DNA of 64,000 nucleotides from Ignavibacteria bacterium. GTDB lineage: Bacteria > Bacteroidota > Ignavibacteria > Ignavibacteriales > SURF-24. Below, piece after piece: positions 1,027-62,012 of this stretch (position 1 is the stretch's first letter; every line of letters starts with the position of its first letter). The stretch lies in NCBI GenBank assembly GCA_037140715.1, contig JBAXDX010000001.1, forward strand, positions 8,000-71,999, in the 5' to 3' direction. The notes below the pieces were generated by a model. The model made no database searches. It was not told the origin of the DNA and saw only the letters and a program-made list of their open reading frames with translations. Made by a program: the position numbers and the translations under genes.

Positions 1027-1722
1027 CTAGGAAATAACCGGAGGAACGGGCGGGTCAGTTGGTTTTTCATGCCTTATTCCGAGGTTTTTAATGGTTTTTA
1101 TTGCCTGATACTCTTTGTACATTGCTTCATTTTCTGTTCTGAAGGGGATCATGCTTTTGTCAAGACTTTTTCTGATAAACATTCCAGTTGTGCTGACTTT
1201 CTCAAAAATTTCTTTTCGCATTGCTTTTTTCTCACCCTGGCTGAGTTCGCGTTTGCCGAGAGCGGATTTATAGAGTCCAAGCAGATCTTCGATTTCTGTA
1301 AGTTTTGGCAGGTCATATTCGTAAACAACAAGGCCGGCAAGGTTATCTTTTGCGGCATCAATAATACTTTTTGAGCTGTTGTAGAGATTCATTTCCGTCA
1401 TTTCCTGGAAAACGGATAAAGATTTATCGCAAAGAGCTTTTAGTTCCTCGCCTGCGATATCAACGCCAACTCCGTAAAGAGCACCGGACAAAGGGAACAT
1501 TACATCAATAAGATTTTTTGCAGCAGCCTTTTTGGCATTAGTTTTGCCTACAACGGCTTCGTCATAATTGCTTATCATATTTTCCACGGCAATGGCTTTT
1601 TCTTTAAAGGTTGTGAAAGCTGTGAGTACGGGAGGTTTGGTGGCAATAGTTGCTGCCCATTTCTCTATAAACTCCTGCATTGCCTGGTACATTACTACTT
1701 TTCTTTGAATTGACATATCCAT
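1027..1722 (-). CDS. hypothetical helical protein
   Basis: 231-aa ORF with AAGGAG-type RBS (aaaaaggagtagtaaaaATG) upstream of the start at 1722. No family recognised. Confidence 0.6.
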   Translation of the reverse strand: MDMSIQRKVVMYQAMQEFIEKWAATIATKPPVLTAFTTFKEKAIAVENMISNYDEAVVGKTNAKKAAAKNLIDVMFPLSGALYGVGVDIAGEELKALCDKSLSVFQEMTEMNLYNSSKSIIDAAKDNLAGLVVYEYDLPKLTEIEDLLGLYKSALGKRELSQGEKKAMRKEIFEKVSTTGMFIRKSLDKSMIPFRTENEAMYKEYQAIKTIKNLGIRHEKPTDPPVPPVIS

Positions 1723-1931
1723 TTTTACTACTCCTTTTTGAAATCAGGTATTTAAATGAGTCACTATTGTTTAGTACAGAACAATTTTTGCCTGTCCGAA
1801 ACAGGCGGAAGAACAGTTATTACGGGTTTGGACTAACATACTAGGTTCGGGGCGTTTTCAGGAAGACAAGAATCGAATATTAATGGCGGGGAAGATGCTG
1901 AAGGCGGATAAAAGCGGGTTCAGGATTGTTT

Positions 1932-2369
1932 TCCGGAGACTTCAGGTAGTCATCCGGAGAGTCAAGATTGTTTTCCAGGAACCCAGGATGGTCGTCCAGG
2001 AGCTTCGGATGGTCATCCAGGAGCTTCGGATGGTTTCCAGGAACCTCAGATAGTCATCCGGAGAGTCAGGATGATTTCCAGGAACATCAGATGGTCATCC
2101 GGAGAGTCAGGATGGTCATCCAGGAACTTCGGACAGTCATCCAGGAACTTAGGATGACTTCCAGGAACCTCGTACAGACAAAAGTGAGTTAATTTTTTCC
2201 TTCCAGAGACTTCGGATAAGCTTCCAGAGACTTCGGATAAACATCCAGAGACTTCAGATAAGCTTCCAGAGACTTCAGATAAGCTTCCAGGAACTTCGGA
2301 TAAGCTTCCAGGAACTTCGGATAAGCGTCCAGGAACTTCTGACAGACATCCGGAGGCCCAGGATGGCGT
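1932..2369. repeat. tandem array, about 21 units of 21 bp (consensus TCCAGGAACTTCGGATAAGCT)
   Basis: The TCC(A/G)G unit start recurs at 1932, 1953, 1974, 1995, 2016, 2036, 2057, 2077, 2098, 2119, 2140, 2160, 2202, 2223, 2244, 2265, 2286, 2307, 2328 and 2349. There are two sub-families (..GGATGGTCA vs ..GGATAAGCT) separated by one non-repeat 21-mer at 2181-2201. Confidence 0.9.
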
Positions 2370-19226: not shown

Positions 19227-21863
19227 TCATAATCCAAAGCCCTGCATGGAAGGAATAAAAATAAATTCCAGTTTCCCTTTATCTCCGAGCGTTACCTTTA
19301 TTACAGTTCCATCAGTCTGGTTATCTCTAAGGAGAATCTGCGAGAGAGGATTTATCAGATAACTCTGTATAGTGCGCTTTAACGGTCTGGCTCCATAGGT
19401 TATGTTATAGCCTATTTCCGCCAGCCAGTCTTTAGCTTCGTTATCTATTTCAATCTTCAGATTTTTTGACTTAAGCAATCCGGTTACATGTTCGAGCTGA
19501 ATGTCCACAATCTCTCTAATCTCCGACTTGAGTAATGGCTTAAATAGTACTATCTCATCAACCCTGTTCAGGAATTCAGGGCGTATAGTTTTCCTCAGCA
19601 ATTCCGCAAGCTGTACCCGGAGGTTATCAAGAACGAATGGAAGCTCCTCTTCTGTTGTATTCTCCAGCTTATCCTGTATAATGTGCGAACCAAGGTTGGA
19701 TGTCATTATAATTATAGTATTTTTGAAATTTACAGTTCTGCCCTGATTGTCTGTAAGGCGGCCATCATCAAGCACCTGAAGCAAAATATTAAAGATGTCC
19801 GAATGAGCCTTTTCGATTTCATCCAGCAATACCACAGAATAGGGACGGCGTCTTACGGCTTCGGTCAACTGTCCGCCCTCTTCATAGCCCACATAACCCG
19901 GAGGCGCTCCGATAAGACGTGAGACGGAGAACTTTTCCATATACTCGCTCATGTCAATTCTGACCATTGCATGCTCATCATCGAAAAGAAAGTCGGCGAG
20001 GGCGCGTGCAAGTTCCGTTTTACCTACGCCCGTTGTACCGAGAAAGATAAAAGAACCGACAGGCTTATTAACGTCCTGAAGTCCGGTACGGCTTCTGCGG
20101 ATTGCATTTGACACGGCTGAGACAGCCTCATTCTGTCCGATTATTCTACGGTGAAGTTCCTCTTCCATTCTAAGAAGTTTGCTTCGTTCGCTCTCAAGCA
20201 TTCTGCTGACCGGAATGCCTGTCCATTTGCCCACTACTTCAGCGATATCCTCGGCATCGACTTCCTCTTTGAGCATTCTGTGCTGTTTCTGAATTTCTGC
20301 AAGTCCGAGTGATTCCTGCTTAAGTTTTTTCTCCAGCGAAGCTATTGTACCATAACGCAGTTCAGCGACCCTGCCAAGATCACCAGTACGCTCATACTGT
20401 TCCGACTGAAGTCTGGCAGTTTCGATATCGCTTTTCATTTTCCGAATGATCTGGATTTTATTTTTCTCGAGATGCCAGTGAATTTTAAGTTCCTTACGCT
20501 CATCGCTAAGACCGCGCAACTCACGGCTGAGGTCTTCAAGTCTTTTAGAATTATCATGGTCACGTTCGAGGGCAACCTTCTCAATTTCGAGCTGTTTAAT
20601 TTTTCTTTCCACCGCATCAAGTTCCTCGGGCATCGAGTCAATTTCAATTCTGAGTTTTGAAGCCGCTTCATCGATCAGGTCAATTGCCTTATCAGGCAGG
20701 AACCTGTCGGCGATATATCTGGCAGAAAGCTGAACAGCAGCAACAATAGCGGAGTCAGTAATACGCACGCCGTGGTGGACTTCATATCTTTCCTTGAGAC
20801 CGCGCAATATTGAGACAGCGTCTTCTTCGCCTGGTTCACCAACGAGCACAGGCTGGAAGCGGCGTTCAAGGGCGGCATCTTTCTCGATATACTTTTTATA
20901 TTCGTTTAATGTTGTCGCACCGATTGCATGCAGTTCGCCCCTTGCGAGGGCAGGCTTTAAGATATTTGCCGCATCCATTGAGCCTTGCGCGGCTCCGGCC
21001 CCAACCAGAGTGTGAAGTTCATCGATAAACAATATTATTTCGCCATTTGAATCCTGCACCTCTTTTATAACAGCTTTTAGTCTTTCCTCAAACTGTCCAC
21101 GGAACTGCGCACCGGCAACGAGTGCGCCTAAATCAAGGGCTATAATTTTCTTTGTCTTTAAGTTTTCGGGCACATCTCCGCTTATTATTCTGTGGGCAAT
21201 GCCTTCGGCAATGGCTGTTTTGCCAACTCCGGGTTCGCCTATTAATACAGGATTATTTTTCGTGCGGCGGGAGAGTACCTGGAGGACACGCCTGATTTCC
21301 TCATCACGACCAATGACGGGATCAAGCTTTCCTGTACGGGTAAGTTCATTTAAGTCACGCCCGTATTTTTTTAGTGACTGGTAAGTATCCTCCTGGTTCT
21401 GTGAAGTTACGCGCTGACTGCCACGAATATCCTTAAGGGCTGTAAGGATGGAATCTCTTGTAACACCATTATCGCGTATTAACTGCCCTGCCCTGCCGTC
21501 ATTAGCCACCATTGCAAGAAGCAGGTGCTCAGTTGATACAAATTCGTCCTTAAGCTTCTGTGCCTCATCGGTTGCCGCATCCAGTAAGCGGCCGGTTGTC
21601 TGCGACAGCTGCTGATTGCCGGCTCCGGCACCTGAGACCTTTGGCAGACGCTCGAGAAGTTCGTTTACTTTAAGTTTTATATGGTTAAGGTTTACCTCTG
21701 TTTTCCTCAGGAAGGAAACAGCAATACTATTATCATCCTGAATCATCGCGGCAAACAAATGTTCCGGTTCGACAATCTGGTTATTATAGTTTTGCGCAAT
21801 ATCCATTGCATTTTGAATAATTTCCTGCGCTTTTACTGTAAGTTTGTTTAAATTAAAAGCCAT
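19227..21863 (-). CDS. clpB: ATP-dependent chaperone ClpB
   Basis: Two AAA+ modules ([13 protein letters not shown]; [13 protein letters not shown]) separated by a long coiled-coil M-domain. ATG at 21863 is preceded by AGGTGAG; the ORF track extends to GTG at 21872. Confidence 0.96.
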
Positions 21864-21893: not shown

Positions 21894-22214
21894 TTAAAAA
21901 TCTAGAATAAAATAACGGAAGGTACCTAAAAGTGCATATAGTGCATTTAAAATTCTTTTTCTTCCTCGCCCGAAACAGAAATCTCGTATATTCTCAAATT
22001 TATCACCTACAGCGGTTTTCCATGCTTCTTTCTCTTTTTGCTGCAATCCGGTTTTTGCATATTTATTAAGCGCACCTCTTAAACTTTTATTTACGGGAAC
22101 TGTTTTCACGCCAACTGCTTTCGGCTCCGGATTTTCCTCGCCTTCAAAAATTATAATTTCAACCATCCGTCCCTTATATTTTTCCAGTTCCTTTATCTTC
22201 ACTACGTTGTTCAT
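21894..22214 (-). CDS. hypothetical small protein upstream of clpB
   Basis: 106-aa ORF in the same orientation as clpB. No family recognised and the C-terminal third looks non-protein-like. Confidence 0.3.
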   Translation of the reverse strand: MNNVVKIKELEKYKGRMVEIIIFEGEENPEPKAVGVKTVPVNKSLRGALNKYAKTGLQQKEKEAWKTAVGDKFENIRDFCFGRGRKRILNALYALLGTFRYFILDF

Positions 22215-22331
22215 ATTGTAAACTTAACCTATACATTGATTATTTGCAAATCTTACAATATATTTTTGTAAGCGACTGAGCATCTGCCATTAAATCAGTT
22301 AATATTCACATTATCAGGCAGAAGAACCCAC

Positions 22332-23021
22332 AAATTTCGACCGCGAAACTGTTTGAATTCACCCCATACGAAAAAATTTCATCCCACAGCTATAATTTCC
22401 AGGCAATTGGACAGGCGCAACGGCCGCACAGCTTTAAATTTCGACCGCATACATATAAAATTTGACCGCATTGATTCTAAAATTCACTGCATTGAAAGAC
22501 GCGGCGGCCGTATGGATATAATTTTCCGCCGTTTGGATATAATTTTTCTTCGTTTTGATTCCGGCGGAGTTCGTTTTGCTCCCGGCTGAGAATGTTTCGT
22601 ATAAAATTTCATCTGCAGTGAGTGCGTCCGGCTTTGTTTCGATATAAAATTCAGCTGCTGCGACAGTAAATTGAAATGCTGTGCTGTAAAACAAAACCGT
22701 TTTACTTATAAATTTATTTTTTATGCTGTAAATTGAAAATGTTTCATGCCTGTTTAAAAATGTTTTAGTTCCGGCAAAGAATGATATGCCGGAAAGCGGA
22801 TTCGTTTTTGTAAAAGCAGACTTCGTTTTTCAAAAAACAGCACTTGTTTTGACAAAAAAAATCTTCGTTTTTAAAGATGCGGCGACTGCGATAGAATAAA
22901 TTTTTCTCGTTTTTGAAAAAAATGGATTCGTTTTTACAAAAGTAAACTCCGTTTTAACAGATGCAGCACGCGTTTTAGTAGAAATTCACTCCGTTTAGAT
23001 GTGAATTCGGATGATGAAAGG
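22332..23021. repeat. degenerate tandem array with strict 21-bp phase (about 33 units)
   Basis: CGTTT(T/G/A) starts at 22530, 22551, 22572, 22698, 22803, 22824, 22866, 22908, 22929, 22950, 22971 and 22992, all equal to 22530 + 21n. Related TGTTT/CGCAT/TGCTG cores fill other phase positions back to 22341. A/T runs alternate with the cores. Confidence 0.8.
22983..23021 (+). repeat. left copy of 39-bp direct repeat bounding the defence islet
   Basis: AATTCACTCCGTTTAGATGTGAATTCGGATGATGAAAGG matches 28318-28356 at 38/39 positions. Confidence 0.9.
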
Positions 23022-23068
23022 CATTTATAAATATATAGATTATAATTATTCCTGCTCTAAAAACCAGT

Positions 23069-23112
23069 AAAAATAATTGTCGTCAAACGATAGTTCTAAA
23101 TGCCGCTAATCA
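23069..23112 (+). repeat. left copy of 44-bp direct repeat (inner pair)
   Basis: AAAAATAATTGTCGTCAAACGATAGTTCTAAATGCCGCTAATCA matches 26923-26966 at 40/44 positions. Confidence 0.85.
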
Positions 23113-23753
23113 GAATCTGAATGCCCTTTTTGTCCTCCGGTCGGATGCCTGCTTTTTTCTTTTGTGTTTTTCGGAAAATGATGATTCATAACATCACCTG
23201 ATGGCGGAAGACTGCTGTTATGGCCGTCTGAATGTAACACCGGCTCTGATTTCTTCAACCGCTCATCAGGTATTTCTATTTTTAATTCCGGCTCAATGAT
23301 ATAACTGATTACGGACTCACGACCCTGATTTATGTCTTTCTGTCAGATTTATCATGGGGTTCTGTATATCAAGTTTTACTTTAATATGCAGGACATGTCT
23401 TATTATTTTATAACATTTTTTTATTTATGCTGAGTAGTTACATTTTTTTGTATATTTAATGAAAGAAAAAGTTCTGCAAAGTTTTATCAGATTAAACGAT
23501 ATAATGAAATTCATAAATTTATTAGTTTATAAGTTCAACTATCTATAAAAGTAAGGATTTACGAAAATATATAAAATTTTATCGCCAGTAGATTACAATA
23601 CGATTACTCATTTTAAGCAATATGGAGCAAAAAACATGAGTATATAATAGAAAAATGATTTTTTAGTTGCTTTTGAATACTACATATTAAAATATAGAAA
23701 GTATGAGCAGAAATCGTACTGGATTTTATTAACTAAAATGATAAGACTAACAA

Positions 23754-24854
23754 ATGAATTATTATGAAAAAATTAGAGAATTGACAAGAAACGTTCCAAC
23801 AACATTAGTGGACTTTAATTTACGTAGAGAACCGGCAAGAACGCCAACTCAGGCGTCTTCAAATTTTATAACAAACAAAGAACAAGGGGACTGGGCAGAA
23901 TATCTTATCTTCCGCGCAATTAATGAAACATCAAAGAATTTTGTAGCTGTAAAATATGGTAAATCAGATAATCTTGTCGCCGGCGAAGAAGGATTTGATA
24001 CTTTTTATCAATCTTTTCAAGAAGAACTTGATTCCATAGGTAAACGACCAGATTTATTAATATTTAAGAAAACTGATTTTGATGATAAGCTGGGAGTCAA
24101 CATTAGCAATATTCCATATCACCAAATTACAGAGTATGTTAAAAAAGCTATTGCCGGAATTGAGGTCAGGTCAAGCTCTTTTTTAATTGACCAGTACGAA
24201 GCTGAAATGCAATCGCGAACAGAACGGTTTACGAGAATTGCTTTAGAGCTCAGAGACAACATATTATCTGAATATCATGATATCCTTAATGTTTCACCAC
24301 GACAGAAATACATTTCCGTTTTAGAAGGTATTTCTAACGAAACTCTTAGTATTACGGATTTTAAAGTCCCTGGGTGGAAATCTTCGGACAGGCTTGTTCA
24401 ACTAAATAATCAGTTTAAGAACCTAAAAAAAGCAATTAAGGAAATTCAAAAGAGGGATTATCTTTCCATAACTCCCAAAGTAGAAGACATCAAAGTTGTT
24501 TATAAATGGATTGAAACTTTCAATGTACCTCATTTTTATTTCCAGGTTTTTTTTGATAAAGTCTATGGCATTTCCTTTGAGCATATTCTTGAAATAATAT
24601 CAGATACTGACAATGACGGCGTAATATTTTCAGTAGAAACAGATACAAAAAATCAAAATAAAACGACCATAAAAATAAATTCAAAAACCGGGGTTCAAAT
24701 AGCTTATAAGGTTGACGAACCAGACCATAAGAGTGTAAGAAAAGAAATAGAGCGGGGCAGATTGCTTTTTTATGTAAGCTTTAATGGAGGAACCGCTTAT
24801 TTAGATGTAGATAACCTAAAAAATATTTTAACACTAAGCGAAGAAGAATTTTAA
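23754..24854 (+). CDS. putative type II restriction endonuclease (PD-(D/E)xK-like)
   Basis: 366 aa. It contains ..KRPDLLIF.. followed about 35 aa later by ..GIEVRSS.., a PD...ExK/R-like nuclease core. Its stop overlaps the ATG of the adjacent methyltransferase by 1 nt (TAATG). Confidence 0.55.
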
Positions 24855-26452
24855 TGGCGTATATAAATGTAAATAATATTTCCGATGAAGTTGAACGAGA
24901 ATATTCGGCTTCCACGCCTGTTGAACATAGAAAAAAATACGCTCAGTTTTTTACCCCGCCGATTATTGCTGATCTGATGGCGACATGGATTATCGGAAAT
25001 AAGAAATTGGAAGTTGTTCTGGAGCCGGCTTTTGGGCTTGGCATTTTTTCGAGAACTCTACTTAATAAAAAGTCCGGTATAATAATTAACGGGTTTGAAG
25101 TTGACAAGAAAATCTATCAAAAATCATTAGACTTATATAAAAATGAAAAGAATATTTCTATTCAGTTCAAAGATTATATGTATAATGATTGGGAAAATAA
25201 ATACGATGGCATTATGTGTAATCCTCCATACTTCAAATTCCACGACTATGATAACAAGAATATTCTTAATGAGATAGAAGAAAAAACATCTTATAAACTC
25301 AACGGGTTTACAAATTTATATGCTCTTTTTCTTCTAAAGTCTATTTACCAGCTAAATGAGAACGGCAGAGCGGCTTATATTATTCCCTCAGAACTTTTGA
25401 ATTCTGACTATGGTAAAAAAGTAAAAAAATATTTAGTAGAAACTAAAACGCTAAGACATGTAATCATAATAGATTTCGAAGAAAACGTTTTTGATGGCGC
25501 ATTAACAACCGCATCTATACTCTTATTCGCAAATGATGATGAAGCTGCCAGCGTTCAATTTCATAATATTAAAAATGTCACCGCTCTTCACCCAATAAAA
25601 AAAATAATAGATGAATATCCGGACAATAAAACAAATTTATGTTCTATAAAAATTGAAGAGCTTAAACCAGCAATTAAGTGGCGGGCTTATTATCAGGAAC
25701 AAAATTATAAAAAATATAAACACTTCGTGCCATTTGGAACTTATGGAAAAGTAGTAAGAGGAATAGCAACCGGCGCAAATGAATATTTTACCTTTAATCC
25801 ATCGAAGGCAAAACAGTTCGGTATAAATCAGAAGTATTTATTGCCCTGTATATGTAAGTCTGTCGATATTAAGGGTTCTTTTTTTACAGAAATAGAATTT
25901 GAACAATTACAGAAAAATAATAAACACGCGTTACTTCTTAATGCTATCAACCCGATAGATGACTCTGTAAGGAAGTATATTTCAATAGGAGAAAAAGACG
26001 GGATAGATAAAAAGTTCCTGACTTCTCATAGAAATCCCTGGTATGCTTTAGAGAATAGACTGCCTGCGCCTATCCTGGTATCTGTTTTTAATAGAAACGG
26101 ATTGCGGTTTATTAGAAATGAAGCAGGTATCTCAAATCTTACAACCTTTCACTGTATGTATATAAACAAATACTTCATTCATAAAACAGACTTGCTCTTT
26201 GCTTATCTGCTTACCGATATTTCAAAAGAAATATTCGGAGATAACCGCAGAGAATATGGCAATGGTCTTCAAAAATATGAGCCGAATGATATAAATGGAG
26301 CAAAAATATTGGACTTAGAATTGATTGACTCCAAAATAGAAAAAGTAATACTGCAACTATTCAATAGTTATAGGGAATCAGTTCTAAACCGGCAGCCAAA
26401 TGATAATTATATCAAAGAAATAGAGACTCATCTTTTGAAAATCTTCTGCTAA
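24854..26452 (+). CDS. gamma-class N6-adenine DNA methyltransferase (TaqI/Eco57I-like)
   Basis: 532 aa with the order QFFTPP (motif X), LEPAFGLG (motif I) and CNPPYF (motif IV NPPY), then a long C-terminal target-recognition region. Confidence 0.9.
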   Translation: MAYINVNNISDEVEREYSASTPVEHRKKYAQFFTPPIIADLMATWIIGNKKLEVVLEPAFGLGIFSRTLLNKKSGIIINGFEVDKKIYQKSLDLYKNEKNISIQFKDYMYNDWENKYDGIMCNPPYFKFHDYDNKNILNEIEEKTSYKLNGFTNLYALFLLKSIYQLNENGRAAYIIPSELLNSDYGKKVKKYLVETKTLRHVIIIDFEENVFDGALTTASILLFANDDEAASVQFHNIKNVTALHPIKKIIDEYPDNKTNLCSIKIEELKPAIKWRAYYQEQNYKKYKHFVPFGTYGKVVRGIATGANEYFTFNPSKAKQFGINQKYLLPCICKSVDIKGSFFTEIEFEQLQKNNKHALLLNAINPIDDSVRKYISIGEKDGIDKKFLTSHRNPWYALENRLPAPILVSVFNRNGLRFIRNEAGISNLTTFHCMYINKYFIHKTDLLFAYLLTDISKEIFGDNRREYGNGLQKYEPNDINGAKILDLELIDSKIEKVILQLFNSYRESVLNRQPNDNYIKEIETHLLKIFC

Positions 26453-26666
26453 GAAACTCATCGTTTCGCTATATCCAAATCATACTCAGGTTTGTAAATA
26501 TTTTTGTATAGCTGAGGAAAACAAACATCAGATGAATATGTTTTTTTTGCTCCAGCAGAGATAAGAGCGCTGCCCTCCTTGCCTATATTAGTGAGACAAA
26601 AAATACAGATAAAATAAGACTGAGGGTAAAGGAGAGAATAAAGTGATAAGTCATAGTGTAAATACC

Positions 26667-26720
26667 GAAACATCTGAAACGGAAGGATCCCGAAGGGCGG
26701 GTGGAGTTTCAGATGTTTCA
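26667..26720. repeat. perfect 14-bp inverted repeat, 26-nt GC-rich loop
   Basis: GAAACATCTGAAAC (26667-26680) pairs with GTTTCAGATGTTTC (26707-26720). Confidence 0.7.
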
Positions 26721-26922
26721 TCGCAAAAAAAAGCAGTCCCGGATTCAGAGGTAAAAGTACCGGTAAGATGCCCCAGGTATATAGAGAACTTTAAGCAGGA
26801 AGTCCTGAAACATGTCTGTGAATTACGAGGGGGTTATAGAAACACAACTAATTTTATTCATATGATTTACTTTGTGGCGGGTAAATTAAAGTATGATTAC
26901 CCACTATAAACAACATAGACCC

Positions 26923-26966
26923 AAAAATAATTGTCGTCAACCGGTAATTCTAAATGTCGCTAATCA
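26923..26966 (+). repeat. right copy of 44-bp direct repeat (inner pair)
   Basis: Matches 23069-23112 at 40/44 positions. It lies 12 nt beyond the stop of the macrodomain gene. Confidence 0.85.
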
Positions 26967-26977
26967 AATTGTAAAAG

Positions 26978-28021
26978 CTAATAATTGTATAAGTAATTTT
27001 GGAATTCTTTTAATCGCGCATAAGTAACCTTAATATATTCAGGCTTCATTATGTTTCTTTTTCTTTCATTCCATTCATATACTTTTGTTACCGCAGCTTC
27101 GTAATTGTCCAATAATGAAGGGTCTTCATTAATTACGAAATCAACTGTTGACAGCAATTCCATGCCAAAAGGAAATTCAAACCCTTCGATTAATGAATAA
27201 ACCTTTTCTAATCTGTCTTTTTGTTCATCAGAGCAATTTTCATTTGTAAATAAATCAACAACAGACAGCATTTCTTTTTTAAGAGTGATACAATCAAAAG
27301 GTTTTGCATCCTTAAATTTCATTCCGTCAAGATAAGTCCCGTCCATATCGCTTAATACATGAACTAATTTACCGGCATAGGGACCATAAAGATTTCTTTG
27401 ATAATCCAGTCGAAGATTTTCGCCAAATCTTTGAAGAAAATAGACTAATTTTTGAGCTTCAAGCAAAGTAAGGTCTGTCCGATAACGGTTTAGAATCATA
27501 AGAACTAATGCTCTGACCTTAGTCAGTTTGGGAGGTCTCGCATTTATCAGAATATTATTATAAGCACTTTCTGAAGGCTCGTATATTATTACATCAAGGT
27601 CTTCAATACCAGACATATTATTTAGAATTATCTGCTTCACTTCGTCCCAGTTTAACCCTCCGTTACCACATCCTAAAGGCGGAATGGCAACAGACTTTAT
27701 TGAGTAATTTTTAATTACTTCTTTAAGATTAACAAGCCCGGTTTCAATATAATCAATTTTAGACGGGTTCCTCCAATGTTTCTTGGTGGGAAAATTGATT
27801 ATATATCGTGGTTTAGTAATCTGTGTGGTTTCTGTTACAAACATTTTACCGATGTCAAGCTTATTGGTTTTAGCGGCATTTTCATAAAGTTTAAAGTTAT
27901 AAGGATACATCTTCTTAAATTGAATAGCTATTCCCTTGCCCATAACCCCCATAGTATTTATGGTATTTACGATTGCATCGGTTTCGGACTCTAATATATT
28001 TCCTTTCACAAATCGTATCAT
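26978..28021 (-). CDS. darG: macrodomain protein, DarG-like antitoxin (ADP-ribosyl-DNA glycohydrolase family)
   Basis: The N-terminal macrodomain (MIRFVKGNILESETDAIVNTINTMGVMGKGIAIQFK...YIINFPTKKHWRNPSK...IPPLGCGNGGLNW) closely follows the DarG macrodomain pattern as I recall it from M. tuberculosis and Thermus. There is a ~190-aa helical C-terminal domain (..EAQKLVYFLQ..YGPY..). The ATG at 28021 overlaps the upstream stub's stop by 1 nt. Confidence 0.75.
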   Translation of the reverse strand: MIRFVKGNILESETDAIVNTINTMGVMGKGIAIQFKKMYPYNFKLYENAAKTNKLDIGKMFVTETTQITKPRYIINFPTKKHWRNPSKIDYIETGLVNLKEVIKNYSIKSVAIPPLGCGNGGLNWDEVKQIILNNMSGIEDLDVIIYEPSESAYNNILINARPPKLTKVRALVLMILNRYRTDLTLLEAQKLVYFLQRFGENLRLDYQRNLYGPYAGKLVHVLSDMDGTYLDGMKFKDAKPFDCITLKKEMLSVVDLFTNENCSDEQKDRLEKVYSLIEGFEFPFGMELLSTVDFVINEDPSLLDNYEAAVTKVYEWNERKRNIMKPEYIKVTYARLKEFQNYLYNY

Positions 28022-28269
28022 TAAAAATACCACCTTTCTTGTTTTTTGACTATTATTTTTAGTCCCGTTTTTCCTGCTTCTTTTTCAATGTAATTTAGCA
28101 TTTTATCATTATAAGAAGCAATGCCCGATATAGAGTTTGCCGGGAAGCAGGAGAATTTAAGAGTTTCCAGTAGCTGCCCGTAAAACCCCGGTACCTGTTT
28201 TTGTCCGGAGAGCCGCACAGAGCAAAGAAACAGGACTGCCATGAACGGCAGAGACGGGCAGTAATTCAC
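28021..28269 (-). pseudogene. darT: 5'-truncated darT-like (DUF4433) toxin remnant
   Basis: The 82-codon ORF ends ..LLETLKFSCFPANSISGIASYND...KKQERWYF*. This resembles the DarT C-terminus (..AEFLV..P...I..I.V...WYY). The frame is closed by a stop at 28321-28323 inside the right direct repeat, so at most about 100 codons exist versus about 200-230 for DarT. The N-terminal NAD-binding half is missing. Confidence 0.5.
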
Positions 28270-28317
28270 TTCAAAGCTGAAAGGCAGGAATAATTTCAGG
28301 GATAAAAGTAATGAAAT

Positions 28318-28356
28318 AATTCACTCCGTTTAGATGTGAATTCGGATGATTAAAGG
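28318..28356 (+). repeat. right copy of 39-bp direct repeat bounding the defence islet
   Basis: AATTCACTCCGTTTAGATGTGAATTCGGATGATTAAAGG matches 22983-23021 at 38/39 positions. Confidence 0.9.
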
Positions 28357-28372
28357 GAATTTGCTACGCACT

Positions 28373-29611
28373 CTAATAATGAGACGAAAACAGTTCGAAA
28401 TATTTCCGGCTCATATCTTTAAGCGAAAAATTCTCCGCGGCATAAGCGCGTGCGCTGCCGGATAATTCCTGCAGACGGGTTTCATCGAACAACAACCGGA
28501 CGGTTTTTTCTGCGAAGTCATTTAAATCAAAAGGCTTAATCAGGCGGCCTGAGATATTATCTTTAATAATTTCACCGCAGCCACCTATATCAAAAGTAAT
28601 AGCCGGAGTTCCGCATGAGACTGCCTCTACAAGAGCGTTCGACAGATTATCCGCCTTCGTTGGAAAGACAAGCATATCGGCAGCCGAAAGACACAGGCGC
28701 ATCTTCACTTCATCCTGAACATAACCTGCGCTGTGAATGCGGAAATTCTTCAGCTCAGATATTTCCTCTATTTCTCCAAGTCCCAGTATCAGCAGGTGAA
28801 TCTCAGTTTTAGCCATTGAGCCGATTAATTTCAGAATCTGAATAAGGTCGCGTCCTCCTTTGTAAATATTCTTGCTGAGCTTTTCGGCGCTAAACATAAG
28901 CGTTTTTGCTTCACGCGGAATATTAAGCTCTTCGCGCGCCCGCGCCTTATCCATAGGAGAAAAAATCTCCAAATCAAGTCCGTTAAAAATATGACGCACC
29001 TCGCGGCCTTCAAGCACGGGGCTTTGTATGGCAAGGTTGTAAAGCCATTTGGAAGGAGCAACGAAACTGACATTGGAAGCTGCGTATATACGCTTTTTCT
29101 GTCTTAAAAGAAAACTCCCCGTGTTAATGCCGAGCGCGGGGAAAGATTTGGCATTCGAACGGCTGTTTTTCATTTCTTTCCATGATTCATCTCCGAAAGT
29201 ATGGGCAGAGTTGCCTGTGAATGTCCACATATCGTGCATTGTCCAGACAATAGGGGCTTGTTTCGAGAGTTCAGCAATCATCGGTGTTTCAAAATATCCG
29301 CCCAATGTGTTATGCAGACTTATGATATCAGGTTTTAGCTCCTTAACTTTTTGCCTGATTATCTTAGGTGATACGGGCAGGTACTGATACTGAAGTCCTA
29401 ATGCATTGGAGAAGACATTAAACCAGCGCTCAAAGGACTGGTCGAAGCCGTTTTGACGCGTGGCAAATACATTGGGTTTGTCGGAACGTTTGGTCCTTAC
29501 TACAAAATAGTTATCAGTATGGCAATATTTTTCCAGTCCGCTGCCCAGCCGGGTAGCTGCAATAGCCGATCCGCCTATTACATCCGATATGTTTATGAAT
29601 AGTATCTTCAA
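28373..29611 (-). CDS. family 4 glycosyltransferase (GT-B)
   Basis: 412 aa with N-terminal MKILFIN..GG and a C-terminal E..G....EA...G.P motif (LVEAVSCGTPAITFDIGGCGEII). Confidence 0.85.
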   Translation of the reverse strand: MKILFINISDVIGGSAIAATRLGSGLEKYCHTDNYFVVRTKRSDKPNVFATRQNGFDQSFERWFNVFSNALGLQYQYLPVSPKIIRQKVKELKPDIISLHNTLGGYFETPMIAELSKQAPIVWTMHDMWTFTGNSAHTFGDESWKEMKNSRSNAKSFPALGINTGSFLLRQKKRIYAASNVSFVAPSKWLYNLAIQSPVLEGREVRHIFNGLDLEIFSPMDKARAREELNIPREAKTLMFSAEKLSKNIYKGGRDLIQILKLIGSMAKTEIHLLILGLGEIEEISELKNFRIHSAGYVQDEVKMRLCLSAADMLVFPTKADNLSNALVEAVSCGTPAITFDIGGCGEIIKDNISGRLIKPFDLNDFAEKTVRLLFDETRLQELSGSARAYAAENFSLKDMSRKYFELFSSHY

Positions 29612-42022: not shown

Positions 42023-42108
42023 TTATTTTCTCTCTTTAATAATAATTTTAATGCAAAATAAATCAATCCTGTGTCCGTTGTATTAGATCTTTTTAGAGTG
42101 AATTCATT

Positions 42109-42200
42109 CATGTTATGCAAAAATGTCAGAACTATGATTTATTTCATATTGATTTGCGTTATCATATAAATCACAGTTCAGATGGATTTTGTATAACGTG
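42109..42200. repeat. ~92-bp inverted-repeat element (copy 1)
   Basis: CATGTTATGCAAAA (42109-42122) pairs with TTTTGTATAACGTG (42187-42200). The loop shares ATGATTTATTTCATA, TTGCGTTATCATA and CAGATGGA blocks with 61838-61919. Confidence 0.65.
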
Positions 42201-46973: not shown

Positions 46974-47216
46974 CAATGCTGTCAGGTTAAGGTTCAAAAC
47001 TTTTATTGCGCCCTTTCAGGGCTTTTTGGGTTGTCGGGGAATTTATTTTTCACAGGGCGATTGCCCTGTGCTATTATATTTCGCCCTTTCAGGGCTGAAT
47101 CAGCCCTGAAAGGGCGAAATATATCAGCGATGGGCAACCAACCGCCCATCGAACAAAACAAAATAAAATCCATAAGCCCTACAGGGGCGCAATATGGTGT
47201 TAACCTGACAGCATTG
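46974..47216. mobile_element. 243-bp MITE-like palindromic element at the metH stop codon
   Basis: The 17-bp inverted repeats CAATGCTGTCAGGTTAA (46974-46990) and TTAACCTGACAGCATTG (47200-47216) are perfect. TCAGTCCTG flanks both sides (46965-46973 and 47218-47226). The interior is a nest of hairpins, e.g. TCGCCCTTTCAGGGCTGAATCAGCCCTGAAAGGGCGA. Confidence 0.7.
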
Positions 47217-57244: not shown

Positions 57245-57480
57245 TGTTGATAAAGTGTTGATAATTATTAATTGTGAAACTATTTCACAATTCAGGCAAC
57301 ATGTTATCTACATGGCAAATATAATCTTATTTGTTTACATGGAATAGAAAAACTCAATAAGTCACTATTTTACAATAAGTTAACATATAAACATTAATGT
57401 TATCAATATGTTGATAACTATTTACTGACAGATGTTGCCTCTATAAATTATTTATTTTAAAATTTAAAATTCTTTTTTTT
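57245..57480. promoter_or_regulatory. oriC part 1: DnaA-box-like cluster plus AT-rich stretch upstream of dnaA
   Basis: TGTTGATAA at 57245-57253, 57256-57264 and 57409-57417. TTATCTACA at 57304-57312. TTATCAATA at 57400-57408. Each has 1-2 mismatches to TTATCCACA. An AT-rich tract spans 57440-57480. Confidence 0.6.
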
Positions 57481-57481
57481 A

Positions 57482-58900
57482 ATGTTAATAACTATGAATA
57501 TTACTGAAATTTCAAGCAACAATTCCAAAATGATTTGGAAAGAATGCTTAAAAATCATAAAAGAAAATGTCCCTTACATGACCTATAACACATGGTTTCT
57601 TCCTATAAAGCCAATCCTTCTGAACGGACAGTCGCTTAAAATACAGGTTCCGAACAATTTCTTTATCGAGTGGATTGACGGACACTATAATACTTTAATA
57701 AACAAGACTATCCACCAGGTTATTGGACTGGAAGCTGAACTTGTCTATATAATATCAGATGAAAATGATATACCTGAAATTGAACTTAGACGTGAAGAAC
57801 CCAGCCGCCATGAACCTGTTCAGACTGCAGTCATCGAAAAAGAGATTAAAAACGATAAACCTGAATTTGAAACATATCTTAATCAAAAATATACATTTGA
57901 TAACTTCATTAAAGGTGATGGCAACCAGCTTGCAAGAGCCGCCGCATTTGCTATTAGTGAAAATCCAGGTGAAACTTCTTTTAATCCCCTTTTTATTTAT
58001 GGTGGCGTAGGACTTGGCAAGACTCATCTTATTCAGGCAATCGGTAATAAAATTTTGAGTAATTATCCTCATAAAAGAGTTATCTATCTGTCGAGTGATA
58101 TATTTACTGTTGAATTTGTTGAAGCTGTACAAGCTAACAAGGTAAATGAGTTTTCAAATTTTTACAAAAAAATGGACGCGCTTATAATAGATGATATTCA
58201 ATTCCTTATAAATAAGGAAAAAACTCAGGACTTGTTCTTTAATATTTTTAATATACTTCACCAGTCCGGCAAACAAATCATTCTTTCAAGCGACAAACCC
58301 CCAAAAGACTTAAAAGGTCTAAATGAACGCCTTATATCCAGATTTCAATGGGGACTGTCAGCGGATATTCAGCCACCTGATTATGAAACGCGTTTTGCCA
58401 TATTAAAGAAAAAGAGCGAAAACTATGGAATTTATTTATCTCCTGATATATTGGAATATATAGCTATAAATATTACATCCAACATCAGGGAACTGGAAGG
58501 CTGTCTGATAAAGCTTCTGGCGAATACATCGCTTAGTTCCAAGGAAATTAATCTGGAAATGGCTAAAAAGACAGTTAAAGAGATAGCCACAGACAGAAAG
58601 GTAAATATTTCAATAGAATATATTACTAAAGTTGTCTGTGAGTGCATGAATGTAGAAGAAAACAAGGTCCGCGAAAAAAACAGAAAACAGGAAGTAGTAC
58701 TTGCACGGCAAATAGCAATGTACTTATCTAAAAAACTAACCAAGTCTTCGCTGAAAACCATTGGTCTTCACTTTGGCGGAAGGGATCATTCTACCGTTAT
58801 ACATGCATGTAATAATATTGAAGTTCTGTCAAATGAAGATATTGCGCTAAAAGACGTACTCGAATCTATCAGAAATAAGATTGAACTTAGCGTTGCTTAG
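57482..58900 (+). CDS. dnaA: chromosomal replication initiator DnaA
   Basis: 472 aa with the AAA+ Walker A GGVGLGKTHL, ..IDDIQF.., and the C-terminal DNA-binding domain ..GGRDHSTVIHA.. The start may be the Met at 57494. Confidence 0.97.
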   Translation: MLITMNITEISSNNSKMIWKECLKIIKENVPYMTYNTWFLPIKPILLNGQSLKIQVPNNFFIEWIDGHYNTLINKTIHQVIGLEAELVYIISDENDIPEIELRREEPSRHEPVQTAVIEKEIKNDKPEFETYLNQKYTFDNFIKGDGNQLARAAAFAISENPGETSFNPLFIYGGVGLGKTHLIQAIGNKILSNYPHKRVIYLSSDIFTVEFVEAVQANKVNEFSNFYKKMDALIIDDIQFLINKEKTQDLFFNIFNILHQSGKQIILSSDKPPKDLKGLNERLISRFQWGLSADIQPPDYETRFAILKKKSENYGIYLSPDILEYIAINITSNIRELEGCLIKLLANTSLSSKEINLEMAKKTVKEIATDRKVNISIEYITKVVCECMNVEENKVREKNRKQEVVLARQIAMYLSKKLTKSSLKTIGLHFGGRDHSTVIHACNNIEVLSNEDIALKDVLESIRNKIELSVA

Positions 58901-58901
58901 A

Positions 58902-59141
58902 TGTGGATAACGTACATGGTAAGTGTTGGCTAATTGTTGTGTATGTACGTTTTCAGCTGACTATGTTGATATCATACTATATGGAAAGACTTATCCACAT
59001 TTAATAAAATCCAAAAGTTTGCAATACAGTTTATATTTGTGGCATTTTAAGTTATCAACATATTCACATCTTTATTAGATTTATTAAAAATTTTTAAAAA
59101 TAAATTAATATAATATAAATGAGTGTGTGGATTGTTGATAT
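58902..59141. promoter_or_regulatory. oriC part 2: DnaA boxes and AT-rich unwinding candidate between dnaA and dnaN
   Basis: Perfect boxes TGTGGATAA (58902-58910) and TTATCCACA (58991-58999). Near-boxes lie at 58964-58972, 59052-59060, 59126-59134 and 59133-59141. About 50 nt of almost pure A/T spans 59066-59120. Confidence 0.75.
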
Positions 59142-61837: not shown

Positions 61838-61919
61838 ATGTTACGAAAAAATGTATGATTCATTTCATACTTATTGCGTTATCATAGGAACAATAGTCAG
61901 GATGGATTTTTCGTAACAT
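61838..61919. repeat. ~82-bp inverted-repeat element (copy 2)
   Basis: ATGTTACGAAAAA (61838-61850) pairs perfectly with TTTTTCGTAACAT (61907-61919). The loop is homologous to 42123-42186. Confidence 0.7.
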
Positions 61920-62012
61920 GAGTTACAAATATCAGTTCAGAACCGATAAATATCGGTTCCGAGCTGATAAATATGGGTTCCGAGCCGATAATTTTTCGTA
62001 ACATGAGTTACA
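61907..62012 (+). repeat. 21-nt-phased composite: direct repeat - 3 tandem units - direct repeat
   Basis: TTTTTCGTAACATGAGTTACA occurs at 61907-61927 and 61992-62012. Between the copies are ATATCAGTTCAGAACCGATAA (61929-61949), ATATCGGTTCCGAGCTGATAA (61950-61970) and ATATGGGTTCCGAGCCGATAA (61971-61991). Confidence 0.85.

Follow-up and report, generated by a model that had tools for sequence, protein, structure and literature searches.

How can a stretch of bacterial DNA keep an exact 21-bp phase over 670 bp when its units are only ~45% alike, i.e., differ from each other by ~55%? The question is raised by a tandem array (array 2, also called copy A below) in a 64-kb genomic fragment of an uncultured Ignavibacteria bacterium, the whole of which is referred to here as the window. 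An earlier note, made from the letters of this DNA alone, had interpreted the preserved period as a sign of selection on spacing, that is, on two turns of the helix. We consider array 2 as one copy of a lineage-specific family of non-coding 21-bp minisatellites, and attribute to this reading a probability of about 60%. The coordinates of the features discussed are collected in Table 1.

Table 1 Arrays, repeats and genes at the loci discussed; coordinates refer to the window unless another contig is named
Feature	Position	Strand	Remarks
Array 1	1853-2360		Two sub-arrays
clpB	19227-21863	-	First conserved gene downstream of array 2 on the minus strand
106-aa orphan ORF	21894-22214	-	Start ~128 bp from the left end of array 2
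Array 2 (copy A)	22342-23012		32 units of 21 bp, one register
39-bp direct repeat, left copy	22983-23021	+	Covers the last 1.5 units of array 2; hairpin GAATTCAC-N11-GTGAATTC
Inserted islet	23022-28317		5.3-kb restriction-modification islet, outside array 2
IS66-type transposase N-terminal remnant (DUF6444)	23106-23258	-	In islet
AccI-family restriction endonuclease	23754-24854	+	In islet
Eco57I-like N6 methyltransferase	24854-26452	+	In islet
Macro-domain protein	26978-28033	-	In islet
39-bp direct repeat, right copy	28318-28356	+	17 bp from the glycosyltransferase stop codon
Glycosyltransferase gene	28373-29611	-	Beyond the right 39-bp repeat
Array 3	61927-61990		Three units AAATATCGGTTCCGAGCCGAT, ~70 bp upstream of gyrB
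Array 4	8707-9147 of L332 (ERZ27300037 k141_1724073)		21 units, 42-bp higher order CGACTTGATAGAAGCTTCGTT / CGACTCAAATAATGGTTCGTT

Array 2 is a real, non-coding array of 21-bp units in head-to-tail arrangement, and the consensus of its 32 units reads YGTTTTGATAnAAAnnTnnnn. In 21-bp rows anchored at position 22530, all twelve CGTTT cores that had been placed at 22530 + 21n were recovered (12/12), and the remaining rows carry related cores such as CGCAT, TGTTT and TGCTG, which are of the YG type and can be followed back to about 22362. Two parts can be distinguished: on the left (22342-22802), AT-rich units (GATATAAAATTT) are intermixed with GC-rich units (TCCGGCGGAG), and the right part (22803-23012) consists mainly of CGTTTTT-N2-A(4-7) units. 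The period is exact, as claimed before, with autocorrelation peaks only at lags 21, 42, 63 and 84. The identities at these lags (0.451, 0.44, 0.435 and 0.43, respectively) compare with a mean of 0.265 and a maximum of 0.32 in 2000 shuffled controls, which corresponds to z values of 9-11. The phasing of A/T tracts was borne out as well: Fourier power at the period of 21 is 10.6, vs 2.6 at the strongest other site of the window. The weight matrix of the array contains 8.2 bits per unit, with positions 1-2 (YG) being the strongest, followed by TTTT-G and then by the A-rich positions 12-14. Using leave-one-out matrices, register 0 was individually preferred by 26 of the 32 units, and the array appeared solid in 22425-23012 and weaker in 22342-22424, with a sharp right edge at 23012. 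Its true left end is located at ~22342, because the paralogue described below reveals one 1-bp deletion inside the window unit 22362-22382.

The same period recurs elsewhere in this genome. In the 64-kb window, 21 bp is the sole tandem period: at lag 21, identity is above 0.45 in 903 positions of the sliding window, vs 0-55 positions at each of the lags that are not near-multiples of 21 (41 and 42 excepted), and Tandem Repeats Finder agrees. The search for further arrays of this phase, which the earlier note had proposed, identified two in the window (1853-2360 and 61927-61990) and more on another contig. Altogether, at least five 21-bp arrays exist in about 92 kb of genome, where otherwise only three-copy micro-repeats of 5 and 11 bp were seen; the other 15 kb of the contig to which the window belongs contain no further array.

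In array 1, one sub-array (1916-2170) shows an alternation of 20 and 21 bp, giving a period of 41, and the other (2200-2339) is made of ~92% identical units CTTCCAGAGACTTCGGATAAG. An exact inverted repeat of 12 nt, TTTGGACTAACA / TGTTAGTCCAAA (1827-1838 and 2514-2525), encloses the whole, with ~0.05 such repeats expected by chance. Array 3 is flanked by direct copies of TTTTTCGTAACATGAGTTAC (61906-62011); the likely start of gyrB is a TTG at about 62058. Array 4 is situated between convergent genes and is probably not coding, because its units vary by CpG-to-CpA and T/C exchanges at codon positions 1 and 2. Its consensus matches those of arrays 1 and 2 at 13 of 21 positions, a weak likeness (uncorrected P ~0.015), and the block TTCG-N4-GATA is common to arrays 2 and 4 in the same register.

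Some further observations concern these arrays. Array 1 is younger than array 2, and a Logan contig of another sample stops inside it. The 231-aa ORF downstream of array 1 (1027-1722, minus strand) lacks Pfam domains and is the sole member of its cluster at 90% identity. Array 4 overlaps a called 147-aa orphan gene, and frames are open there on both strands.

A diverged paralogue of array 2, copy B, was found by scanning metagenomes for CGTTTTT-N2-AAAA occurring twice with 21-bp spacing, a pattern most matches of which were unrelated. It is carried by contig L254 (JGI 3300021602), positions 917-1720 of which pair unit by unit with window positions 22331-22955. The two copies are 86.4% identical, with 80 substitutions in 588 bases (28 paired units); 56 of the 80 (70%) are transitions, and the pattern, including changes of CpG to TpG or CpA, is that of ordinary point substitution. 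Internal length differences amount to one, one and six whole units, and copy B holds a near-identical internal duplication of eight units. The sole small indel is the 1-bp deletion in the window copy mentioned above, which affects the second unit from the left. Flanks and gene contexts of the two copies are unrelated, and homology ends at the array edges: copy B has a 66-aa orphan ORF on one side and a metalloenzyme-comEC operon on the other.

Copy B and the window belong to the same genome. Contig L332, from the window's own assembly (ERZ27300037), begins inside copy B and is 100% identical to positions 1207-8916 of L254. Proteins encoded at both loci have neighbouring accessions of one NCBI Ignavibacteria MAG, and both loci are present in the assembly of SRR7053541 too. 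The three assemblies are identical wherever they overlap.

Unrelated short 21-bp arrays, with five to six units CCCACGTTTTTGGAAAAATCT, are widespread and were seen in L215, L259, L307 and about 45 other metagenome loci. They have conserved flanks and reside on contigs of ~50% GC, several of which come from human-gut metagenomes; no plasmid or phage match was obtained for them. The one in L259 (680-830) is located upstream of a 652-aa ORF, presumably resembling a glycogen-debranching-type enzyme. A short dispersed intergenic element, TCATGTTAYGCAAAAATGTCAGAA..ATGATTTAT, was detected at 42108-42170 of the window and at 100-146 of L254 (88% identical over 41 nt), in the latter case followed by repeated TGATAACGCATAYCATCAGATGCTT motifs. 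The window, an Ignavibacteria sequence, also has a match to the Rfam Acido-Lenti-1 sRNA at 47051-47096 on the plus strand (45.3 bits, above the gathering score). It contains rnpA, yidC, dnaN, recF and gyrB and therefore represents the origin region; DnaA-box clusters at 57245-57417 and 58902-59060 flank dnaA (57482-58900), probably constituting a bipartite oriC.

The surroundings of array 2 bear on its distribution. As previously stated, the array terminates in the 39-bp repeat of an adjacent islet, the two copies of which differ by one mismatch. Insertion of the islet took place at the array edge and duplicated 39 bp of the target; the islet has an internal 56-nt repeat (23069-23124 and 26923-26978, 84% identical). 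Before this insertion, array 2 directly adjoined the 3' end of the glycosyltransferase gene, and with the islet removed the order on the minus strand is: glycosyltransferase stop codon (28373), 17 bp, array 2, ~128 bp, the 106-aa ORF and clpB. Neither a Pfam domain nor a homologue beyond this genome was found for the 106-aa ORF, which may not be a real gene; as an anchor for related loci it proved an orphan, and there is no record of its 99% variant P0121. No gene was called on array 2 in the source contig, and an exact 24-mer of the 39-bp repeat had no match in the metagenome collection.

The sequence of ClpB assigns the organism to the uncultured Ignavibacteria. Anchoring on ClpB, we scanned species genomes and found at best 65-67% identity and no array; the periodicity control at these loci is uninformative for GC-rich genomes, because codon periodicity swamps the signal. 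In relatives with 83-85% identical ClpB, mnmE stands beside clpB and no 21-bp array was found in about 60 kb. The locus of array 2 is therefore not conserved, but specific to this lineage.

Intrinsic curvature was among the explanations that the earlier note had put forward, and it gained support: in two wedge models, array 2 is predicted to be the most curved stretch of the 64 kb. The first model has Bolshoy-Trifonov wedge parameters, checked only on three controls, of which A5N5 and A4T4 came out curved and T4A4 straight, as they should. The modelled end-to-end/contour ratio is 0.39-0.43 per 210 bp (window median 0.93) and 0.12 per 420 bp. The predicted curvature exceeds that of 300 out of 300 base shuffles and of 99% of column-permuted periodic arrays; the internal order of tracts counts, and not periodicity alone. 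A plain AA-wedge model (10.3-10.7 bp/turn) and a parameter-free tract-phasing spectrum gave array 2 the same top rank, and copy B is the predicted most curved DNA of its contig. As far as these models predict, curvature is a real and inherited property of array 2 and its paralogue.

Array 1, with a ratio of 0.93 in the wedge model, is not predicted to be curved. Considering also its 20/21 alternation, neither strict phase nor curvature is family-wide, and the position of array 4 between convergent genes means that 'upstream of a gene' is not a family trait either. Moreover, when a quarter of the array 2 units gain or lose one base, the predicted curvature over 210 bp hardly drops, so that curvature alone would not demand a strict phase.

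What, then, holds the phase? Selection on spacing itself is suggested at most, and the larger part of the pattern does not call for it. Whole-unit turnover explains that part: the copies differ by gaps of 1, 1 and 6 complete units and by the 8-unit duplication, and changes of this kind keep the 21-bp phase automatically. What is left over is a suggestive deficit of small indels. None was found in 27 paired units, against about 75 substitutions, and ~330 inferred in-place substitutions in array 2 were accompanied by one small indel only. At a rate of about one indel per 10-20 substitutions in bacterial non-coding DNA, a figure not calibrated for this genome, 4-8 small indels would be expected between the copies vs 0-1 observed. 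This difference is suggestive, and there may be some constraint on the phase of array 2 beyond whole-unit turnover. In array 1, a 1-bp unit variant persisted and spread.

A period of 21 bp would also result from a gene encoding a heptad repeat. Stops in all frames, noticed before, are confirmed with at least five per frame in six frames (224 codons), and, together with the lack of codon-position bias and of homologues, they support the earlier view that the array is not a coding heptad repeat at present. The intact 7-aa-repeat relative that, according to the earlier note, would have pointed to a dead gene did not turn up: a search of 1.84 billion representative proteins with the 131-codon heptad stretch gave no homologue (E<=0.001), and the 66-aa ORF running into copy B matches itself only. 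That the array is a decayed remnant of a gene for a protein of 7-residue repeats (x-K-T-x-x-x-F/Y, minus strand), which was duplicated first, we regard as unlikely, even though some observations are in its favour. Stops are rarest in the minus-strand frame that is in phase with 23012, which is open for 131 codons (22437-22829), and the 66-aa ORF of copy B, which runs into the array in this frame, starts with an ATG (L254 810) that has the ribosome-binding site GGAG. The paralogues, furthermore, share one stop only, the would-be terminator at 22434, vs 6.5 expected (P 0.002, or ~0.01 once the best of six frames is allowed for), a result with which a coding origin long ago would be compatible. 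We give this last result little weight, because its null breaks up the sub-families of units and overstates the expected stops, and because the counts of all six frames lie below it. The most conserved positions, however, are the would-be third ones of the codons (3.4 bits, vs 2.9 for the second and 1.9 for the first; 32 units), and the conserved T/A codon invariably has a purine at its wobble position. Between the copies, substitutions are distributed over the codon phases as 25/32/23, without bias, and synonymous and non-synonymous codon changes in the fewest-stop frame number 11:48, close to the random/neutral ratio. Both copies have internal stops, four of them in the best frame of copy B. 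Recoding of TGA as an explanation for the in-frame stops was rejected: TGA serves as an ordinary stop in this genome, closing 12 of the 32 longest stop-to-stop frames (>=250 codons), and a TAA, too, lies inside copy B.

The spacing might alternatively reflect a protein that coats or wraps one face of the DNA, with a site in each unit (a T5-N2-A4-5 palindrome or TTCG-N4-GATA) and a binding geometry that selects 21 bp, after the manner of plasmid iterons, partition centromeres or operator arrays. Such a platform would fit with sites every two helical turns, with the near-palindromes of the right half (TTTTTGCAAAA in copy B), with the presence of TTCG-N4-GATA in array 4 in the same register, with the indel-free drift of the 27 paired units (about 75 substitutions) and with the predicted curvature kept in both copies. 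Substitutions between the paralogues, however, are not significantly concentrated outside the core (chi-square ~21, 20 degrees of freedom), and 8.2 bits are the total information of a unit. No rep, par or LytTR-type regulator gene was found beside either copy among the Pfam-scanned proteins, 32 units far exceed the known operator and iteron sets, and plasmid and phage collections gave no match. We therefore hold a binding platform to be rather unlikely. LytTR-type regulators recognise 9-bp direct repeats placed 21 bp apart; the core of array 2, TTCGTTTTT, matches just the (C/A)GTT centre of their consensus, and no LytTR domain was detected among the 20 window proteins scanned. BLAST of array 2 against plasmids and phages gave no similarity; the pattern CGTTT-N16 repeated four times occurs in at least 120 stretches of the viral collection, mostly coding repeats among the matches listed, and is not specific. 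The array could, lastly, be transcribed and act as RNA, as a sponge or a repeat-hairpin RNA, which appears very improbable. Its right half does fold better than shuffles on the minus strand (z=-3.7), because of T-run/A-run hairpins, a by-product of the T5/A5 symmetry, but z values of the left half are only -1.2 and -1.5 on the two strands, and all Rfam matches remain below the gathering score (best E-value 0.2). The promoter and terminator scan was not enriched either: sigma-70 promoters and terminators in array 2 are at chance level, no convincing sigma-54 match was recognised by eye in or beside it, and the Bacteroidetes-type promoter motif TANNTTTG is not enriched there.

Several established types of repeats were considered and rejected. 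Replication-origin iterons would require an adjacent initiator (rep) gene and origin features, and the neighbours are the orphan ORF, clpB, the restriction-modification islet and the glycosyltransferase. For a partition centromere of the parC/sopC type, no parA/parM or parB/parR operon was seen in the gene lists of either locus. A DnaA-box or datA-like cluster can be dismissed, as no box with <=1 mismatch is present in any array, and boxes cluster only at the two sites around dnaA. CRISPR arrays have repeats of 24-48 bp and unique spacers; the 21-bp units here are contiguous, with no spacers.

The reading we prefer thus remains a lineage-specific family of non-coding minisatellites. Arrays of this family would grow and shrink by replication slippage or by unequal recombination between units, and such unit-wise events would hold the 21-bp register while the sequences of units diverge. 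The common period, along with the weak shared blocks TTCG-N4-GATA and GACTT..GATA..AGCTTC, suggests that one ancestral array may have been dispersed. With a T-tract and an A-tract every 21 bp, i.e., every two helical turns, the bends of single units would add up, and array 2 and its paralogue are for this reason predicted to be strongly curved. If the arrays have a role at all, it is most likely structural: a bent stretch or protein-wrapping platform would occupy the spacer upstream of the clpB operon in the case of copy A, and the spacer upstream of the metalloenzyme-comEC operon in the case of copy B. It is nearly as probable that the array is selfish and purely neutral. The evidence for a recombination substrate, which the earlier note had listed among its candidates, is circumstantial, consisting in the homology of the copies, which stops at the array edges, and in the islet, which sits exactly at one edge.

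A more far-reaching conjecture, to which we attach a low probability, is that the 21-bp arrays are phase-locked elements, genome-wide, selected at two helical turns. As bent platforms that wrap protein, corresponding in bacteria to positioning sequences, they would organise the nucleoid or set the activity of nearby promoters; upstream of the heat-shock gene clpB, copy A might then represent a bend that is sensitive to temperature, and unit turnover would tune array length.

Tandem repeats in bacteria are commonly regarded either as markers for typing or as portions of genes for surface proteins. The diverged paralogue described here offers a direct view of how an array evolves: units are gained and lost and bases drift, without small indels. 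If the phase is selected, the arrays would make up a family of DNA elements defined by geometry and not by sequence, and its two curved members would lend themselves to tests of curvature-dependent regulation. If it is not, array 2 remains a clear example of satellite-like DNA on a bacterial chromosome. The locus also carries a warning, namely that a conserved period in a drifted sequence does not by itself prove selection on spacing.

A literature search for 21-bp intergenic arrays in bacteria returned nothing specific. The closest known systems belong to other classes of repeats. Bacterial minisatellites or VNTRs, such as the mycobacterial MIRU loci and the intergenic repeats employed in MLVA typing, have the same head-to-tail intergenic units of tens of bp, the same length change by whole units at several loci per genome and the same short-read assembly breaks inside arrays, seen here in Logan contigs. 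Array 2, with its 32 head-to-tail 21-bp units and a copy that differs from it by whole units, conforms to this class. It departs from usual minisatellites in that several arrays with very different units are all of exactly 21 bp, that strongly diverged units stay in register and that a diverged paralogue exists elsewhere in the genome.

Well-known curved-DNA systems include the bend of kinetoplast minicircles, bends upstream of bacterial promoters and the thermosensing bend at Shigella virF. Array 2 has in common with phased A-tract DNA the A- and T-tracts phased with the helical repeat and the large planar bend that models predict, and like the promoter bends it lies upstream of a gene start, one of the genes being that of the heat-shock chaperone ClpB. 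Known promoter bends span tens of bp, whereas array 2 extends over 670 bp with tracts at every second turn (21 bp), its bend is a predicted one and no nucleoid protein is implicated.

Iterons and partition centromeres (the 22-bp iterons of R6K, the twelve 43-bp repeats of F sopC and the ten 11-bp repeats of R1 parC) are arrays bent by the protein that binds them. They resemble array 2 in having direct repeats of ~20 bp, by which sites come to lie on the same helical face. In contrast to them, array 2 has no adjacent rep or par gene, ten times more units than iteron sets and far more diverged units; it is chromosomal, exists as two copies in unrelated contexts and lacks similarity to plasmids and phages.

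The repeat units of Borg extrachromosomal elements reportedly vary widely in length, and their copies are said to be near-perfect. Borgs have many fast-evolving tandem-repeat regions, within and between called genes, and to that extent share with the present genome the occurrence of many independent tandem-repeat regions side by side (PMC9879509). The Ignavibacteria genome, unlike Borgs, has repeats with a fixed period of 21 bp that reside on a bacterial chromosome, and array 2 among them is an old array with diverged units.
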